64,000 bases of DNA from an uncultured Acidobacteriota bacterium. Lineage in GTDB: Bacteria > Acidobacteriota > UBA6911. The notes under the pieces were generated by a model that saw only the letters and a list, made by a program, of their open reading frames with translations, was not told the origin of the DNA and ran no database searches. Location: the NCBI GenBank assembly GCA_963843575.1, contig CAWJKZ010000012.1, forward strand, positions 32,001 through 96,000. The letters are read 5' to 3'. Below are positions 9,723-49,649 of the stretch, in pieces (within the stretch, counting starts at the first letter, position 1; every line of letters starts with the position of its first letter). The position numbers and the translations under genes are program-made.

Positions 9723-9806
9723 GTGAGTCCGAGCTTCAGCCCGGACGTTGCTTGCGGTCGCTATATGCTCAGATCAAAAGACGTCCGGGCTGAAGCCCGG
9801 ACCCAC
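9723..9806. repeat. REP doublet (REPIN-like), short-spacer copy
   Basis: gtccgagcttcagcccggac ... gtccgggctgaagcccggacccac; spacer shared with the 14175 and 47094 copies. Confidence 0.85.
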
Positions 9807-14174: not shown

Positions 14175-14308
14175 AAGGGGTCCGGGCTTCAGCCCGGACG
14201 CTGTTTGCGGTCGCTATAACGTGCGCCCGTCGCCACATAGATCAGATCAAAAGACGTCCGGGCTGAAGCCCGGACCCACTTGGACAGCCTCTGAAGCTCG
14301 GACCCACT
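14175..14308. repeat. REP doublet plus a third partial REP
   Basis: gggtccgggcttcagcccggac - spacer - gtccgggctgaagcccggacccac, then ctgaagctcggacccac. Confidence 0.9.
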
Positions 14309-14381: not shown

Positions 14382-14677
14382 GTGCCCATATACGAGTATC
14401 AGTGCTCTAATTGCGGTGAGGTTTTTGAAGCTTTCCAGAAGATTCACGACAACCCTTGTACGGAGTGCAAGTTCTGCCACGGACGGGTCGAGAAGCTGAT
14501 CAGCCACTCCAGCTTTCAGCTCAAAGGCGAGCGGCTGGTACCTTACGGATTACGCGCGCAAGTCCCAACCCTCTTCTTCCGGCAGCGTGGGGGAATCCAA
14601 ACCGGCGGACAAGAGCGACAAGGGAACCGAGTCGAAACCGGCGGCCGCGCCCCGCCAAAGGGAGCAAAACCGATTGA
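14382..14677 (+). CDS. FmdB-family zinc-ribbon protein (indel near 14530)
   Basis: MPIYEYQCSNCG...CKFCHG...SSFQLKG then SGWYLTDYARK in a shifted frame; AAGGAGG RBS. Confidence 0.85.
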
Positions 14678-14684
14678 GGGGGAT

Positions 14685-15198
14685 GTGAACCCACCCAGTT
14701 CTCGGGGAACAGCGCAAGCTGGTCATCCACGCTGCAGACGAGGCGGAGCAGCACACCTCGAGCTATTACTGTTTTCCGCCCCACCGCTGGCAGATGCTTC
14801 GCTACGACCTGCTTACCAGGCAGGATAACGAGTGGGAACCCCTGCCCGAGCGTATTCTGGCCCGGGTTCAACACATCGAGGCGGTCCAACCGGCACGGCG
14901 CTGCAATTACGACTTCTACCGGATCCAGCTGAACGATCCGGGCATCCTGGGGGCGGCTGAACGGGAGAACATCGCCGCCGATCTCTACCCGTTTCTCGTT
15001 TACATCATCACCCACGAACTGGTGCATCTGGTGCGGCTGAGCAGCATCGTGGACGACCGCCGGCACGTCGAGGCGGCGCCCGAGTGCGAGGAGGCGCGCG
15101 TGCAACAAGTCGCGCGCCAGGTGCTTGCGCGCAGCGGACACCGCGGGTTCGATGCCGTGTTCGACAGGTTCTGCTCCCCGCTGTCCGCCGCCGATTGA
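14685..15198 (+). CDS. Small HExxH (zincin-like) hypothetical protein; start uncertain
   Basis: YIITHELVHLVR plus downstream EEARV; frame open from about 14690, with a likely GTG start displaced by an indel. Confidence 0.6.
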
Positions 15199-15277: not shown

Positions 15278-15751
15278 ATGAAGCAGACCAACGAAATCCA
15301 GATCGGTGAGGAAGCGCCCGACTTCACGTTGCCAAGCCACCTGGGCACAAACGTGTCGTTGAGCGACTACCGAGGAAAGAAGAATGTCGTGCTGGCGTTT
15401 TACCCGGCCGCATTCACACCCGTCTGAACGATCCAGATGCCCTCGTACGAAGAAGACCTCTCCGAGTTCGAGCGGCACGATGCCCAGGTTCTGGGCATAA
15501 GCGCAGACAATACCCATTCCAACAAGGCCTGGGCCAACTCGATGGGGGGAATCTCCTACCCCCTGCTGAGCGATTTCTGGCCCCACGGCTACGTAGCGGT
15601 CAAATACAATGTCCTGCGCTCGGAAGGCATCACCGAGCGCGCCCTGTTTGTGGTCGACAAGCAGGGGATCATCAGGTACAAAGACATACACCCGATTGCA
15701 GACCAGCCCAGGAACAACGAGCTGTTCGAGGCATTGAAGCAACTAAGCTGA
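15278..15751 (+). CDS. Selenocysteine-containing peroxiredoxin (AhpE/AhpC-TSA-like), Sec50
   Basis: IGEEAPDFTL...VVLAFYPAAFTPV-TGA(15425-15427)-TIQMPSY...VLGISAD...ERALFVVD; TGA lies at the PxxxTxxC peroxidatic Cys. Confidence 0.9.
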
Positions 15752-15795: not shown

Positions 15796-16485
15796 ATGCA
15801 CGATATCGCACGAAACTGCATCCCGTACACGCCCTTCACGGGTAAGCTGGAGCGTAGCAGGATTTGCCTGGTCACCACGGCGGGGGTCCACCTCAAGACG
15901 CAGCCTCCGTTTGTGCTGGCGGGCGACACGTCGATCCGGCTCTTGCCGGCCGCGGCGCAGGCCGGCGAACTCGTCATCAGCCACGAACACTACGACACAA
16001 CCGACGCGTTGAAGGACATCAACTGCATGTTCCCTGTGGGGATACTGCGCGACCTGGCGGCGGAAGGCTGCATAGAGGCGACGACACAGGAACATGTCTC
16101 CATGGGATTCTCCCAGGCGATGCGGGAAATCCGGGAAAAGACTTCGTTCGAGATCGCCGCCGTCGTCCGCAGGCTGAAAGCGGATGCCGTGCTGCTGACC
16201 GCCGGTTGACCACTTTGCCACCGGACGGTCGTCACGTTACAGCGCGCAATCGAGATGGAAGGCATACCGACGGTCCTGGTGACTGTCGATCCCGAACAAT
16301 CCTGGCAGGCGCGGCCGTCGCGCGCCCTGCACCCCGTCGGCTTCAAACTCGGCAACTCGCTCGGAAACCCCGGCGCCGCCGAGTTGCAGAAGGCGGTCGT
16401 GATGGACGCCCTGGGCATCATGCTCGATCCCCCCGAACCGGGCACCATCGTGGACAAAGAGTATCCCGCCTACTCCACTGCCTGA
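15796..16485 (+). CDS. prdB: PrdB-like (D-proline reductase selenoprotein B family) selenoprotein, Sec138, UxxC
   Basis: TTAGVHLK, LAGDTS, SHEHYD, KDINCMFP, LLTAG-TGA(16207-16209)-PLCHRTVVTLQRAIEMEGIPT; ORFs 15796-16209 and 16255-16485 share one frame. Confidence 0.85.
16210..16250 (+). promoter_or_regulatory. Candidate bacterial SECIS hairpin
   Basis: cggac-GGTC-gtc(a)cg with the loop 17 nt after UGA; ttgc/gcaa lower stem; folded by eye. Confidence 0.55.
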
Positions 16486-37639: not shown

Positions 37640-38537
37640 AACGCCCCTGCTCGACTGGGTCTCGGCTTCGGCCAGGACGATATCAGGACCGTGCGTGCCG
37701 TTTAGCAGGCACCGTGTGGCAGCGGCAAGAAAAACGTCCGGCCTGAAGCCCGGACCCGCCGGCTCTGCGCAAACTGCCGCGGCGCGGGCGGCGCTTGCCC
37801 TGTTGCTCGGGCTCGGGCTTGGGGCTGCCGCGGCTGCAAACGCCGCCTCTGTCGCATCACGAAACCGGCAGGGCAACCGCCTTTACGCCGAGGGCAAGTA
37901 CCAGGAAGCCGAGAAGGCGTACCTGGAGGCACAGGCGGCGGAGCCGTCCAGGCCGGAATTGATCTACAACCTCGGCAACACCCTCCTGAGGCAGAAGAAA
38001 TACGACCAGGCGGTCCAGGCCCTCAACCAGGCGGTCGGCAAGGGCAACCGCGGCCTCCAGGGGAACGCCTGGTACAACCTCGGCAACGCGCTGTTTGAAA
38101 CCGGGAAATACAGGAACGCGGCCGATGCCTACGTCCAGACCCTCCGGATCAACCCCGCCGACCACGAGGCCAAGCAGAACCTCGAACTCGCCCTGCGCAA
38201 GCTCCAGGAACAACAGAAGCAGCAGGCGGCAGGGGGAGACCGCAACCCGCAGCAGCAGAACCAGGACCAATCGTCCCGGAAGAACGAGTCTGCGGGAAAG
38301 GACGAGGACAAGCGGTCCGACAAGCAGGAAAACCAGCAGAGCCGCTCCGGCCCGGAACAGAAGCAACAGGAACAGCCCGCCAATCCGCAGGCGACCCAGG
38401 CCGACGGGCGTGAAGGGGGACTAAGCAGGGAACGGGCGCTGCAGATCCTGGACGCCCTGCAGAACCAGGAACTGGCCGACCAGCGTAAACTGCTGGAGCG
38501 CCAGGCACGACGAAAAGCGATAGGGAAGGACTGGTGA
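37629..38537 (+). CDS. batC: BatC TPR protein
   Basis: YNLGN repeats, Q-rich linker, ALQILDAL...KDW; start uncertain. Confidence 0.8.
   Translation: MLIETPLLDWVSASARTISGPCVPFSRHRVAAARKTSGLKPGPAGSAQTAAARAALALLLGLGLGAAAAANAASVASRNRQGNRLYAEGKYQEAEKAYLEAQAAEPSRPELIYNLGNTLLRQKKYDQAVQALNQAVGKGNRGLQGNAWYNLGNALFETGKYRNAADAYVQTLRINPADHEAKQNLELALRKLQEQQKQQAAGGDRNPQQQNQDQSSRKNESAGKDEDKRSDKQENQQSRSGPEQKQQEQPANPQATQADGREGGLSRERALQILDALQNQELADQRKLLERQARRKAIGKDW
37731..37757. repeat. Single REP within the batC 5' region
   Basis: aaaacgtccggcctgaagcccggaccc. Confidence 0.7.
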
Positions 38538-44534: not shown

Positions 44535-44576
44535 GCGACCGCAAACTGCGTCCGGGCTGAAGCCCGGACCCACTTG
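44535..44576. repeat. Half REP doublet
   Basis: gcgaccgcaaactgcgtccgggctgaagcccggacccacttg. Confidence 0.8.
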
Positions 44577-45654: not shown

Positions 45655-46962
45655 TCAGTCCGCAGGCAAAACGTCCATGAACGAAGAGACGGAAAACACA
45701 GCCCGCCCCAGCCCGGCTTCGCCGTAGCCCGGCATGGGGGGAAGGCGGTGTCGGGCGCGAGCGTTGCGGTACACACGCAGGAGCCGGACGTGGTACTCGA
45801 GCGGCGCCCCCTCCTGGTTCCTCCCAAGGACGCTGAGCGGCTCCGGGCACCACGTCGTGAACCGGGGGGACACGCCGTGGCTCATGAAGAAATCCAGGCC
45901 TTCGGAGGTGGAGGCGATCGCTTCGTCGACCGTGCCGAAACCATCGGGCGCCGCCATTTCAATCCCGGCGACGAAATTCGGGATGACCCTCGATGGTCCG
46001 AACACCGTCGCCGCGTCCAGGATGCGCCGGATCCATTCGTCGCGCCCGATGGTCCGCGCCTTACCCGCGCAGTAGATCTCAAACAACCGCTTGTCCCAGA
46101 TCTCGTAGTTCGGGTGATAGATCTGAACCCCGGCGTCCCGCAGCCGGTTCACCTGGTCCTTCGGCAGCGCCTGCACCACGACCTTGCTGATCCACCTGCG
46201 CGGGAAGCGCCTCTCGATCGCTTCGGGGTAGCGGGCGTAAAACTCCACTTCGGACTTGCCCTCGAGCGTCGCAGTGATGCTCCCGCCGGTGACCGTGTAC
46301 GCTTTGCTTTCGGAGTCGGTTTCCGAGATGATCTCGAGCGCCTCTACGATCTCCGCGACCGACTTCACCGAGGTGTACGGCCGGCCGGATAGTTTCTGCT
46401 GCCGGTAATTGGCATTGATGTCGCAAAACTGGCATTCCTCCCTGGCCCCGAAATACTGGCACAGGCGAAACGCCGTCAGGTAGAGGAGGTAGCCCCACTC
46501 GATCGTGGGAGCGATGTCCATGATGGGCTTCCCGCTGGCGAGGGTGCGCCCGTAATAGGCGGGGGAATTCTGCAGTTCCACGTCGGCGACGGCCTTGCCC
46601 TCGAGCTGGAGCCGCAGCGTTCCCTCCACGCACTCTATCCGGTACGGGGAGGCCGGGTTGAGCCGCACCGAGACGACCACCGGCTGAAAACGGAAGGGCC
46701 CGCCGACCAGACGGATTTCCTCGGGCGCGCTGTTGCTCTCGTCCTGTCCCATCTGCGCGATGGGCACCATGTCGAACGAAAAGATGAAGTAAGCCTTGCG
46801 CTTGAACCCTGCCGCCACCGCCAGCGCCTCACGCGACCAACCCATGCCGCGACGCAGCAAGTCTTCCTTGAATATCGCCTCAACCGGGATGTCGGGATAG
46901 CGTTCGGCCAGATCCTCGACAGCGGCCAGAGCCCCAATTTGCGGTTTAGAACCCGAGAGCAT
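45655..46962 (-). CDS. Radical SAM protein with a Cx8Cx2C motif
   Basis: LCQYFGAREECQFCDIN, VTGGS, HPNYEIWD, NFVAGIE. Confidence 0.8.
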   Translation of the reverse strand: MLSGSKPQIGALAAVEDLAERYPDIPVEAIFKEDLLRRGMGWSREALAVAAGFKRKAYFIFSFDMVPIAQMGQDESNSAPEEIRLVGGPFRFQPVVVSVRLNPASPYRIECVEGTLRLQLEGKAVADVELQNSPAYYGRTLASGKPIMDIAPTIEWGYLLYLTAFRLCQYFGAREECQFCDINANYRQQKLSGRPYTSVKSVAEIVEALEIISETDSESKAYTVTGGSITATLEGKSEVEFYARYPEAIERRFPRRWISKVVVQALPKDQVNRLRDAGVQIYHPNYEIWDKRLFEIYCAGKARTIGRDEWIRRILDAATVFGPSRVIPNFVAGIEMAAPDGFGTVDEAIASTSEGLDFFMSHGVSPRFTTWCPEPLSVLGRNQEGAPLEYHVRLLRVYRNARARHRLPPMPGYGEAGLGRAVFSVSSFMDVLPAD

Positions 46963-47093
46963 CTGGATAATCTAACATATCTGCGAAGTGCGGCGGCCCC
47001 AACCGGTTCTTTCGCGCATAACAAGGCGCAGCCCAAGTGAGTCAGGGCTGAAGAGGTTGTCCAACGGTTGAACCGCCCGCCCTGCCCGTAAAA

Positions 47094-47203
47094 CAAGTGG
47101 GGCCGGGCTTCAGCCCGGACGTCTTTTGATCTCATCTATGTGGCGACGGGCGCACGTTATAGCGACCGCAAACAGCGTCCGGGCTGAAGCCCGAACCCAC
47201 TTG
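47094..47203. repeat. REP doublet, inverted copy of the 14175 element
   Basis: Near-exact reverse complement of 14175-14283 including the spacer. Confidence 0.9.
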
Positions 47204-47227
47204 GGTTGAGGTGGGGCGGGAGTGGCT

Positions 47228-47581
47228 CTACAGGTCGTCAACGGGACCGTCAGCCGAGCCGGTGTCTGCTTCCTGGGCCGCCTCGTCCGCGAGCTGGTCG
47301 ATGTCCTCCCCCACGTCCTCGCCCATTTCCTTCCCCATCTTCTTCATCCACCGGGCCACGCTGGAGGGATCGTTCTCATCGAGGCCGGAGAAGCTGCCGG
47401 GATCGGCCAGCGACTCGAGCCGTTTTTCCTCGGACTTGGGCATGGCGAAACGCGAGAACAGCTGCTCGAGTTCGCGGCCCTGGCAATACTTGCAGCGCGG
47501 CTCGAAGGACGACGGGGTCAGGACCAGGAAACTCATTTTTCGCCGGCACGTCAGACAGCGGTATTCATAGATAGGCATCAT
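47228..47581 (-). CDS. FmdB-family zinc-ribbon protein with an acidic tail
   Basis: MPIYEYRCLTC...CKYC...LFSRFA...ARWMKKMGKEMGED. Confidence 0.85.
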   Translation of the reverse strand: MMPIYEYRCLTCRRKMSFLVLTPSSFEPRCKYCQGRELEQLFSRFAMPKSEEKRLESLADPGSFSGLDENDPSSVARWMKKMGKEMGEDVGEDIDQLADEAAQEADTGSADGPVDDL

Positions 47582-47618
47582 CGCACCCTGTGAAAACGTG
47601 AGACTCGCACGCCGAAAC

Positions 47619-47861
47619 TCAGGCGGGGGGCGCGCCCTGGGCCGCGACCGCCTCGTCGATCTCCGCAGGATCGAAACCGACCAGTACCTTGTCGCCGATG
47701 ATAAGGGCCGGCGTGGCCATGATCTTCAGCCGCTGGAGTTCGCGGATGGCACCGGGCGTGGTGCGAATGTTGATTTCTTCGAACGGCACTCCTTTTTGCG
47801 ACAGATACTCCGTCGCGAGGTGGCAGGAGGGTCAGCCGGGTTGCGTGTATATCTTGACCAT
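47619..47861 (-). CDS. Selenocysteine-containing glutaredoxin/NrdH-like protein (UxxC); alternative start 47876
   Basis: MVKIYTQPG-TGA(47832-47834)-PSCHLATEYLSQKGVPFEEINI...ATPALIIGDKVLVGFDPAEIDEAV; stop at 47619-47621. Confidence 0.9.
47798..47816 (-). promoter_or_regulatory. Candidate SECIS hairpin
   Basis: gcgacgga-GTA-tctgtcgc stem starting 15 nt after the UGA. Confidence 0.55.
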
Positions 47862-47925
47862 TCCCGAATCCTCCATTCGATGGGTACTCCCCGGCGGCAT
47901 TTTACCATGGGATTTCCGCCCGGGT

Positions 47926-48417
47926 TCAGTCCCGGCGCCTGTAGTTCCCGCTCTTCCCGCCGCTCTTGGCGCGCAGCCGGATCCGCTCGATGGAGGCGCC
48001 GCGTTCGACGGCCTTGACCATGTCATAGAGCGTCAGCGCGGCGACGGACACGGCGGTCAGCGCCTCCATCTCGGCGCCCGTCGGGCCATGGCAGGACACG
48101 GTAGACACGAACTTCACCCCGCGGGCCTGTGGCTCCGCCTGCACGTCTACGTGTGTCAAATGGAGGGGGTGACAAAGCGGGATGAGCTCGGACGCCCGCT
48201 TGGCGGCCATGATCCCCGCGAGCCGCGCCGTCTCGATCGCGTCCCCCTTGGGCAACCGTCCTCTGGCGACGAGCCTCAGGGTATCCGCCGAAAGGCGGAC
48301 GAAGCCCTCCGCGAGGGCGCGACGCGCGGTCGCCCCTTTTTCCGAAACGTCGACCATGTGCGCCCGGCCCTCCGCGTCGAGGTGGCTCAATGACTGCGAT
48401 GGCTTGCGTCTGCTCAT
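47926..48417 (-). CDS. moaC: Cyclic pyranopterin monophosphate synthase
   Basis: LSHLD...[34 protein letters not shown]. Confidence 0.95.
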
Positions 48418-48425
48418 AGGGTCGG

Positions 48426-49649
48426 TCACCCGCGCCGGCGCTGGAAAAAATCGGGGAGGAGCATGGCTTCCACGGTCTCGCCCTGATCCATCGAGGCCCG
48501 CTCGCCCGGGAAAATGACCGTGGCGTTGCCGCGCGCGAACCCGATGATGTCCCCCGATCCGCGCCACTTCACGGGGTCCACCGTCCAGGTATCCTTCTCG
48601 AGTGTGACCCACGCCGGCAGGAACGCGGTGCGGCCCGGGAGCTGTCGCATCCCGCGGGTCAGTGTCCCCCGGATTCTCGGCAGGTCCGGGTTGGCCAGGC
48701 CGCACAGCCGTCCAAGTGCCGGGCGGACGAAGTTCTCGAACGCGACGAAGGACGACACGGGATTGCCCGGCAGTCCGAACACCAGCTTACCCGTTGCGGT
48801 AGCGAAGACGGTCGGCTTCCCCGGTTTCATCGAGACCCGGTCGAAACGGATCTGCAGGCCGCACTCGGCAAAGGTGGCTTTGACCAGATCGTATTCTCCC
48901 ATCGACACGCCGCCGGTCGCCAGGAGGACGTCAGATTTCAGCCCCTCCTGGATCCGGGCGCGCAGGTGCTTCCGTTCGTCGCGGGCGATGCCGAGGTACT
49001 CGGGGCATATGCCCAGCGTGGCCAGCTGCCCGCGCAGCGAGAACGCATTCGAGTTCCGGATCTGCCCGGGCCCCGGGGTCTGCCCCGGCTCCACGAGCTC
49101 GTCTCCGGTCACGAGGACGGCCACCGTCGGACGCGCCCAGACGGGTACGCGCGCCCAGCCGAAGATCGCAAGGACAGCCATTTCGGCGGCGCCGATGATG
49201 CGCCCGGGCTCGATCAGGACGTCGCCTTCGAGGGCTTCGTGTCCTGCGGGCGTGACGTTGTCCCCGGGGGCCACGGCCTTCAGGATTACCACGGAGCCGG
49301 CCGCCTCCCCCGGCCGGGTCTGCTCGACCATCTGAACGGCGTCGGCGCCTTCGGGAACGGGTGCGCCCGTGTAGATCGCCATCGCCTCGCCCGCCGCCAC
49401 GGCCCGCGGCGGTTCCGTCCCGGCTCGCACCTCGCCGACGATACGGAGGGTGGCCGGGAGGACCGCGAGGTCTTCCGAGCGAAGCGCAAAACCGTCCATC
49501 GCCGAACGCCGGAATGGCGGCACATTCGACGTGGCGACGACGGACGTCGCCAGGACCCTGCCCGCGGCCTCCCGCAAGGGCACTTCCTCGAAACGGCGCT
49601 CCGGCAGGTTGCCGAGGACGATTTCCCTGGCCTGTTCGATCGTGATCAC
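48426..49649 (-). CDS. moeA: Molybdopterin molybdotransferase
   Basis: [38 protein letters not shown]. Confidence 0.95.

Follow-up and report, generated by a model that had tools for sequence, protein, structure and literature searches.

The prototype of the selenocysteine (Sec) glutaredoxins is Grx1 of Clostridium (Alkaliphilus) oremlandii OhILAs (cGrx1; PDB 7c10, 7c12, 7c13), which the excerpted text of its structural description presents as a native selenoprotein whose motif is U/C-P-X-C, with glutathione as the named reductant and a specific enzyme, MsrA, as the one it serves (PMC7642778). A 2026 review of the prokaryotic selenoproteome lists the family, in its excerpted text, as PF00462 with a UxxC motif and places Sec-glutaredoxins in a restricted set of bacterial species (PMC13188914). 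Other small redoxins stand near this family, among them YruB (TIGR02196), NrdH (TIGR02194), and the Uxx-star proteins (NF041212, families 1–3), which share a small glutaredoxin-like fold and an N-terminal Sec motif.

We analyzed a 64,000-nucleotide stretch of DNA from an uncultured Acidobacteriota bacterium, here called the window, and find that a gene in it, grx, is a further member of the already characterized Sec-glutaredoxin family. In profile searches its best PDB match is cGrx1 itself (7c10; 86.8 bits, E = 8e-24, residues 2–75); other matches are the Bacillus thioredoxin-like chains 3zij and 3zit (5e-14) and NrdH 1h75 (7e-11). With cGrx1 it shares the small single-domain fold, Sec as the first residue of U-P-x-C, the cis-Pro, the GFD motif, and the existence of Cys-form homologues; the K-E-F-L-S peptide in the 7c10 alignment also matches the peptide encoded by the RNA hairpin described below. 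It differs from cGrx1 in belonging to another phylum, in being unannotated, in lying in a moaC-fmdB junction, and in having no msrA beside it. The msrA of this genome is on another contig and split between frames, with no in-frame TGA in the matched part.

The protein scores 47.3 bits against the 22.9-bit cut-off of PF00462 and falls under the curated cut-off of every glutaredoxin-like NCBIfam model. Its best NCBIfam match is YruB (77.3 bits, cut-off 88.55), and NrdH gives 50.1 bits (cut-off 85.75); length, CxxC position, and overall fold are shared with both, whereas the first Cys is here a Sec and no rubredoxin or ribonucleotide reductase (RNR) context is seen. The Uxx-star model gives 59.2 bits against a cut-off of 66, and the motif is UxxC rather than UxxT, without a C-terminal U-x-x-stop. 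A true Uxx-star member, ending in U-H-V-stop, is encoded elsewhere in the same genome (C14:531218-531391).

These similarities bear on what the protein does. It could be an NrdH- or YruB-type redoxin, reduced by thioredoxin reductase instead of depending on glutathione and feeding RNR or rubredoxin-type oxidative-stress enzymes. YruB and NrdH among the top NCBIfam matches, the 3zij, 3zit, and 1h75 structures, the small size, and a GFD in place of the GG-x-dD motif typical of classical glutaredoxins all point that way. We nevertheless consider this role unlikely, given that all of these scores stay below the curated cut-offs and that RNR genes are absent from the families beside the 28 Grx loci scanned. 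The by far closest structural relative, moreover, is cGrx1, with glutathione as its reductant according to the same excerpt (PMC7642778).

An in-frame UGA followed by a conserved hairpin

The features of the gene are as follows.

47619..47861, minus strand: grx, glutaredoxin-fold selenoprotein gene of 80 codons (ATG 47861-47859, stop TGA 47621-47619), from translation with TGA as U, the PF00462 and 7c10 profile matches, and orthologues in relatives
47869..47874, minus strand: Shine-Dalgarno-like GGAGGA, 7 nt upstream of the grx ATG, read from the sequence
47832..47834, minus strand: Sec codon (UGA; codon 10), encoding the first residue of the U-P-S-C redox motif; 33 of 38 related loci have TGA here and 5 have Cys, and Logan contigs from two runs retain it
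47798..47816, minus strand: SECIS hairpin GCGACGGA-GUA-UCUGUCGC, starting 15 nt after the UGA with its apical loop 23 nt after it, from fold and covariation

An earlier note on this DNA had proposed that reading through the TGA at 47832-47834 yields a complete 80-residue glutaredoxin fold that the list of open reading frames lacks, and both points are borne out. The minus-strand frame 47861..47619, with this TGA as Sec, translates to MVKIYTQPGUPSC...ATP...GFD...PPA (80 aa; PF00462, E = 2.3e-12), containing the predicted YTQPGUPSC, TP, and GFD. Under table 11 only two pieces remain, a 56-aa frame (47619-47789) and the tail of a 64-aa frame (47832-48026), and the gene is thus hidden from ordinary gene calling. 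An alignment of eight orthologues has U10, C13, T50-P51, and G62-F63 invariant. We also considered a second Sec at the terminal TGA, which was ruled out: the 17 sense codons that follow it are not conserved in relatives and do not make a U-x-x-stop.

The TGA could instead be a genuine stop codon, or come from a sequencing error or a lesion in a pseudogene, with no full-length glutaredoxin being made. This would fit an assembly that does contain errors (rpoC, selA, selD, and msrA are each broken across frames) and the public gene calls for close relatives, which shorten grx to 55–69 aa. The errors observed, however, are indels and never substitutions, and in orthologues both the reading frame and the residues flanking the TGA are conserved. 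The aligned codon is more than a chance stop, since 33 of the 38 related loci have TGA at the same position and the remaining five have Cys. The TGA-bearing loci include many-contig assemblies of other genera and of another phylum. Eleven of 61 relatives searched gave a grx match, eight of them with one TGA, and in a 401-genome phylum sample the CxxC position holds TGA in 25 of the best 30 matching places. UGA thus aligns with the N-terminal catalytic Cys of CxxC (U10-P-S-C13), for which Cys-form homologues exist, two of them (P0002 and P0003) full-length. With the downstream hairpin confined to the TGA forms, a stop, error, or lesion is almost certainly not the explanation.

Sequencing data agree. 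The earlier note would have abandoned the gene had the TGA lacked support in reads; at the contig level it is retained in Logan contigs from two studies. One is identical over 47726-48065, and the other, from another study, covers 47594-47945 with six differences, none listed at 47832-47834. The identical contig may derive from the source sample of the genome assembly. The share of sampled words in any one run was at most 0.21, contigs leave parts of the stretch uncovered, and none of the listed runs containing the stretch is RNA. A word-sharing protein database search with the Grx returned six proteins, a count that does not measure family size, and a species-wide locus scan with the single protein found six loci, of which three are weak Casimicrobiaceae matches that fail the HMM at 1e-6.

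Judged by the general distance and loop rules for bacterial SECIS elements, a suitable hairpin lies shortly 3' of the UGA. It follows the UGA in all 33 Sec forms, starting 15 nt downstream in 29, and consists of an 8-bp stem with a GUA or GUU loop. Across the 33 sequences 89.4% of pair cells are paired, compared with 39–65% when the partners are slid. Four of the eight pairs vary on both sides in a compensatory manner (pair 23-33, for example, is AU in 17, CG in 9, and GC in 3), and the covariation score was reached by none of 500 shuffles. The mean is 7.15 of 8 pairs and −11.0 kcal/mol for Sec forms, as against 3.8 of 8 pairs and −5.3 kcal/mol for the five Cys forms, which lack the hairpin. 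Part of this conservation reflects protein constraint, because the hairpin sits inside conserved codons (A-T/K-E-Y/F-L-S); the fold z-score over an 81-nt segment is only −1.5, and no Rfam family matches in the window at the gathering threshold.

The genome also carries the Sec machinery that the earlier note had proposed to look for: selB (373 bits), a tRNA-Sec (74.6 bits; ARAGORN assigns SeC, anticodon tca), selD with its own Sec TGA, and selA. In the assembly selD has one frameshift and selA is split over three frames; since the essential rpoC is likewise split into three frame pieces, we take the selA and selD frameshifts to be probable assembly indels. Most relatives have selA as a single open frame; the exceptions are G000, G001, and G010, where it is split, and G008, where the match is partial, all four being assemblies of at most 50 contigs. 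Taken together, the conserved TGA, the covarying SECIS, the Sec machinery, the Cys-form homologues, and a native Sec-glutaredoxin as closest solved relative support grx as a real Sec-glutaredoxin gene.

Selenium insertion itself and the catalytic cycle, with its reductant and substrates, we infer from homology and analogy. In the standard bacterial mechanism, SelB carrying Sec-tRNA(Sec) would bind the mRNA hairpin beginning 15 nt downstream of the UGA at codon 10, and selenocysteine would then be inserted as the attacking residue of U-P-S-C. By analogy with cGrx1, Sec10 would attack an oxidized substrate (a disulfide, sulfenate, or selenenylsulfide), and Cys13 would resolve the intermediate to give an internal selenenylsulfide. 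Re-reduction may come from a cellular thiol system, either glutathione, the reductant named for cGrx1, or thioredoxin reductase, which serves NrdH-like redoxins.

The neighborhood of grx

The genes and elements around grx are as follows.

48426..49649, minus strand: moeA, molybdopterin molybdotransferase (PF03453, PF00994, PF03454)
47926..48420, minus strand: moaC, cyclic pyranopterin monophosphate synthase (PF01967, 2.6e-52)
47899..47907, minus strand: TGGTAAAAT, candidate extended -10 element between moaC and grx, a weak lead only
47228..47581, minus strand: fmdB, FmdB-family Cys4 zinc ribbon with an acidic tail (PF09723, 7.5e-8; TIGR02605, 35.4 bits, cut-off 31.3)
47100..47195, no strand assigned: repeat element 3' of fmdB, terminator-like, containing two GGGCTGAAGCCCG hairpins (both strands have terminator-like sites at 47100-47118)
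45655..46962, minus strand: variant radical-SAM gene (NF045502, 168.7 bits, cut-off 125), which follows fmdB at 15 of the 30 loci from the window's family

The gene order moeA-moaC-grx-fmdB, all on the minus strand, is as first described. Homologues of fmdB start at its second ATG, at 47578. The gene at 47228-47581 has four Cys codons and no in-frame TGA, and is not itself a selenoprotein gene because its stop is TAG; none of the four FmdB matches of the genome has an internal stop. A 15-mer of the repeat element occurs eight times in the window, against 0.01 expected. As the earlier note had it, an FmdB gene accompanies a further selenoprotein locus of the window, although this description is loose: one other gene lies between that FmdB gene (start 14382) and a Sec-peroxiredoxin (15278-15748; FTPVUT; PF00578, 2.1e-38), which is followed by a GrdB-like UxxC gene at 15796.

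From this arrangement it had been suggested that the FmdB Cys4 sites are redox clients or regulators, or that the glutaredoxin serves molybdopterin dithiolene chemistry or the Sec-peroxiredoxin. For the neighboring genes, the proposal becomes that the Sec-glutaredoxin is a dedicated partner that maintains the reduced state of the FmdB ribbon or of the variant radical-SAM protein, or takes part in dithiolene chemistry, with grx and fmdB forming a functional unit. The genes do share a strand with short spacers (moaC-grx 64 nt, grx-fmdB 37 nt), and the order moaC-grx-fmdB is kept in seven loci of six genera at 52–89% Grx identity. A possible shared -10 element adds to this, the motif TGnTAnAnT being found upstream of grx in six of the seven grx-bearing loci and 9–45 nt before fmdB in 7 of the 23 grx-less ones. 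One distant Sec-glutaredoxin locus (L049) adjoins a molybdopterin oxidoreductase (PF00174), and cGrx1 with MsrA offers a precedent for such a partnership, as far as its excerpted description goes (PMC7642778).

The wider comparison speaks against a partnership. In the window's family moaC adjoins fmdB at all 30 fmdB loci, and grx lies between them in seven; in the other 23, fmdB stays beside moaC with no grx remnant in the gap (best E-value 2.6). An fmdB orthologue is present in 43 of the 61 relatives, as against 11 with grx. Outside the family, 34 Grx loci, of which the phylum sample supplied 28 and the species-wide scan 6, all lack fmdB and moaC nearby, and the 3 kb around each of 10 fmdB loci contain neither moaC, moeA, grx, nor the radical-SAM gene. 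Neighbors of Grx elsewhere differ by clade, with DUF547 at 10 of 28 loci and OsmC at 3 of 28, and a sigma-70 consensus scan of 47000-48500 returned no promoter-like site. Of 11 peroxiredoxin loci, only 3 have an FmdB gene within 1.5 kb of the Sec-peroxiredoxin, and all 3 are from the window's own family. We therefore regard a dedicated partnership with the neighboring genes as highly improbable. Neither the client-or-regulator proposal nor the dithiolene proposal is supported by these counts, service to the Sec-peroxiredoxin finds no support, and the linkage is not a conserved association. Because grx is patchy within the family and the linkage is absent outside it, what remains is gene order within one family, and the position of grx beside fmdB and the molybdenum cofactor (Moco) genes looks like local gene order without a functional link.

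Origin and meaning of the locus

In a tree of Grx proteins the copies of the window's family form one clade (98/90), with three copies found in Methylomirabilota genomes as its sister (92/89). The patchy distribution is not explained by loss of the Sec trait, selA being present in 59 of the 61 relatives. The locus is best read as a single capture of grx into a pre-existing moaC-fmdB junction, with the nearest copies in Methylomirabilota genomes. A more elaborate version, in which one such capture fell between the fmdB promoter and fmdB and created a grx-fmdB transcription unit whose selenoenzyme keeps the FmdB ribbon or the variant radical-SAM protein reduced, has in our judgment only a very slight chance of being right; if true, it would give the uncharacterized FmdB family its first functional foothold. 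We are highly confident of the reading as a whole: a Sec-glutaredoxin of a known family, made by hairpin-directed recoding and captured once at the moaC-fmdB junction, outside any Moco or FmdB system.

Mechanism and family are thus already known, the proposed FmdB/Moco link fails, and the locus brings no new biology. Its meaning lies in annotation, as grx and its relatives are cut to fragments of 55–69 aa or missed in public gene calls. With the Sec codon in 25 of the best 30 matching places of the 401-genome phylum sample, Sec-glutaredoxins are, in these bacteria of soil and sediment, much more common than the excerpted text of the review states (PMC13188914). The fixed-distance hairpin GCGAAGGAGUUUCUUUCGC is a simple and specific signal that could help to find and correct such genes.

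A probable selenocysteine reading frame between moaC and fmdB

We examined the locus in which the earlier note had proposed a hidden UxxC glutaredoxin. Under translation table 11, the small gene is visible as no more than a 56-aa ORF and the tail of a 64-aa ORF.

Genes of the grx locus, in window coordinates
48426-49649, minus strand: moeA (PF03453, PF00994, PF03454)
47926-48420, minus strand: moaC (PF01967, 2.6e-52)
47619-47861, minus strand: grx, a small gene without annotation (PF00462, with TGA read as Sec)
47228-47581, minus strand: fmdB, a Cys4 zinc ribbon (PF09723; TIGR02605, 35.4 bits, above cut-off)
47100-47195: terminator-like repeat element
45655-46962, minus strand: variant radical-SAM gene (NF045502, 168.7 bits)

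Reading the TGA at 47832-47834 as selenocysteine (Sec) gives an 80-aa product, MVKIYTQPGUPSC...ATP...GFD..., with a Pfam Glutaredoxin match at 2.3e-12 and a GGAGGA sequence 7 nt upstream of its ATG. The proposed frame, motifs and domain match were confirmed in every detail that could be checked. The codon also holds in assembled reads from two studies: one Logan contig, which may derive from the genome's source sample, is identical to the window across 47726-48065, and another, from a different study, has 6 differences across 47594-47945 with none listed at 47832-47834; rare variants are not visible in such contigs. Public gene calls for near relatives contain two full-length Cys forms and four 55-69-aa fragments.

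Among solved structures, a profile of eight grx orthologues matched Clostridium oremlandii Grx1 best by a wide margin (PDB 7c10; 86.8 bits, E 8e-24, residues 2-75), and the two share U-P-x-C. According to the paper on that structure, C. oremlandii Grx1 occurs natively as a selenoprotein and bears a U(or C)-P-X-C motif; it is proposed to reduce the selenoprotein MsrA, and glutathione re-reduces it in turn (PMC7642778). A 2026 review of prokaryotic selenoproteomes lists glutaredoxin (PF00462, UxxC; PMC13188914), and a 2006 census reports Sec-Grx from three species, Geobacter sulfurreducens, Alkaliphilus metalliredigenes, and Moorella thermoacetica (PMC1794560). The profile match, the review, and the census therefore place grx in a known, experimentally studied family. 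The protein scores below the curated cut-offs of three NCBIfam models: YruB (77.3 against 88.55), NrdH (50.1 against 85.75), and Uxx-star (59.2 against 66), whose U-x-x-stop end is also missing.

The sole other PF00462 match in the genome that holds the window (G000) lies outside the window, at C14:531218-531391 (+). This second selenoprotein gene is of the Uxx-star type, with U-P-Y-T near its start and G-G-S-U-H-V-stop at its end, so that Sec is used by the two glutaredoxin-domain genes of G000 alike.

Codon conservation, a SECIS-type hairpin, and Sec machinery

The grx protein was matched in 11 of the 61 related genomes, and 8 of these matches contain exactly one TGA. An even sample of 401 genomes from the same phylum gave matches at E <= 1e-8 in 98, and among the best 30 places the first position of CxxC is TGA in 25 and Cys in 5. 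Combining these best places with close relatives and 3 loci from Methylomirabilota/Rokubacteria genomes, 38 loci passed the HMM (33 TGA forms, 5 Cys forms); 3 weak Casimicrobiaceae loci failed it and were excluded.

The window's hairpin, an 8-bp stem (GCGACGGA/UCUGUCGC) closed by a GUA loop, starts 15 nt 3' of the UGA. Across the 33 TGA forms, 89.4% of alignment cells are paired; sliding the 3' partners by 1-3 columns lowers this share to 39-65%. Both sides have changed in 4 of the 8 pairs (pair 23-33 is AU in 17 sequences, CG in 9, and GC in 3), and none of 500 shuffles reached the covariation score. The mean is 7.15 of 8 pairs and -11.0 kcal/mol among Sec forms, against 3.8 of 8 and -5.3 kcal/mol among the five Cys forms. 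The hairpin lies within conserved codons (A-T/K-E-Y/F-L-S), and its conservation is therefore partly protein-level, but such constraint does not account for the compensatory changes or for the difference from the Cys forms. One family has exchanged the usual hairpin for another: in L051, L053, L055, and L058 it reads ACCUCUC-GGC/GGA-GAGAGGU and sits about 9 nt further downstream, a case of SECIS turnover inside one protein family. Many of the unpaired cells in the alignment arise because of these four loci.

The Sec machinery, which remained to be confirmed, was found in full in G000: selB (373 bits, above cut-off), tRNA-Sec (74.6 bits; called SeC with anticodon tca by ARAGORN), selD with its own Sec TGA, and selA. 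In this assembly selA runs over three frames and selD carries one frameshift.

Frame-split genes
C8:2469-3523, G000: selA
C13:704799-705723, G000: selD
14382-14830, window: second fmdB

We read the selA and selD frameshifts as assembly indels because the essential rpoC (C24:257298-261310, three frame pieces) and msrA (C27:20915-21371) are equally divided. A single open selA frame of about 470 codons occurs in the many-contig relatives G016, G009, G004, and G011; G000, G001, and G010 are the only genomes with a split gene, and G008 matches it in part; all four assemblies have <=50 contigs. Single-base indels split these essential and conserved genes of G000 between frames, and G001 is affected likewise, in moeA and selA. 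Read support is needed before any frameshift or pseudogene is accepted in G000.

Overall, five lines of evidence, namely codon conservation, the hairpin, the Sec machinery, two more selenoprotein genes in the window, and the Logan contigs, agree that the grx UGA is probably read as selenocysteine. Judged from sequence, grx is a genuine selenoprotein gene that ordinary gene calling hides; it belongs to a known family and is predicted to be recoded via the standard bacterial SelB/SECIS route.

History and neighbors of the glutaredoxin

The fmdB orthologue is present in 43 of the 61 relatives; within the window's family, 31 of 36 genomes have it and 7 of 36 have grx. Loss of the Sec trait as the source of the patchiness of grx was ruled out, as selA is present in 59 of 61 relatives. 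These tallies, and that for the Sec-peroxiredoxin, count G046, a genome flagged unpublished on which no claim hangs. In all 30 fmdB loci compared, every one from the window's family, moaC adjoins fmdB, but no more than 7 have grx in the space separating the two. The 23 grx-less gaps (7-351 nt) yielded no grx remnant (best HMM E-value 2.6), and two further loci of the family, L107 and L108, have the grx-less order.

A maximum-likelihood tree of 37 sequences and about 80 columns, built without an outgroup so that transfer direction is not inferable and excluding the frameshifted L036, groups the six copies from the window's family in one clade (98/90). Rather than joining the rest of its own phylum, this clade is sister to 3 sequences from Methylomirabilota genomes (92/89). 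The Cys form of the relative G004 is nested among Sec forms and therefore points to a probable Sec-to-Cys replacement. The overall pattern fits one capture of grx into a pre-existing moaC-fmdB junction. In most loci with grx, a TGnTAnAnT motif precedes the gene by ~35 nt, and some loci lacking grx have the motif ahead of fmdB; a consensus promoter scan at the grx locus found no promoter-like site, and we regard the motif as a putative promoter element only as a lead.

The variant radical-SAM gene is of the NCBIfam 'variant_rSAM' type, with no Pfam hit and C-x8-C-x2-C spacing in its translation. In 15 of the 30 loci it comes after fmdB, and in 5 mutM takes its place.

The functional link to FmdB or molybdopterin chemistry suggested in the earlier note was not borne out, as the invariant moaC-fmdB pair encloses grx in a minority of the family's loci. 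In 10 fmdB loci belonging to the other families of the class, a 3-kb search turned up none of moaC, moeA, grx, and the radical-SAM gene. Neither an FmdB gene nor moaC was found beside grx in 28 other-family loci of the phylum sample or 6 loci from a species-wide scan, using an FmdB HMM that recovered 12 of 12 positive controls. The titles and abstracts found by literature search revealed no paper linking FmdB with a glutaredoxin. As for the other selenoprotein locus to which the earlier note pointed, 3 of 11 peroxiredoxin loci, all in the window's own family, have an FmdB gene no more than 1.5 kb away from the Sec-peroxiredoxin, and in the window one unrelated gene separates the two. The FmdB and molybdopterin ideas are without support from comparative context and have a low probability.

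The Sec-peroxiredoxin (FTPVUT; 15278-15748, +; PF00578, 2.1e-38) lies beside a GrdB-like gene (T-A-G-U-P-L-C; 15796-16482, +; PF07355, 2.5e-5), and table-11 gene calling cuts both; the peroxiredoxin TGA is retained in 10 of 11 related loci. The window also carries a repeated intergenic element of inverted GGGCTGAAGCCCG hairpins, usually paired ~75 nt apart (9730-9799, 14183-14272, 44552-44566, 47104-47193, and one more at 37738), the 15-mer occurring 8 times versus 0.01 expected. Of these copies, one directly follows fmdB and one shortly precedes the second FmdB gene; the element was terminator-like in a scan.

Neighbors of the glutaredoxin vary by clade, with DUF547 in 10 of the 28 other-family loci and OsmC in 3; two loci have zf_CopZ and one, L049, has a molybdopterin oxidoreductase. 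The DUF547 gene adjoins Sec-Grx in L057, L059, L060, L063-L065, L067, L070, L072, and L074, from other families of the phylum, and in three loci of another family an OsmC-like peroxidase with EamA and HAD genes lies beside Sec-Grx. These clade-specific partners look like more promising functional links than FmdB.
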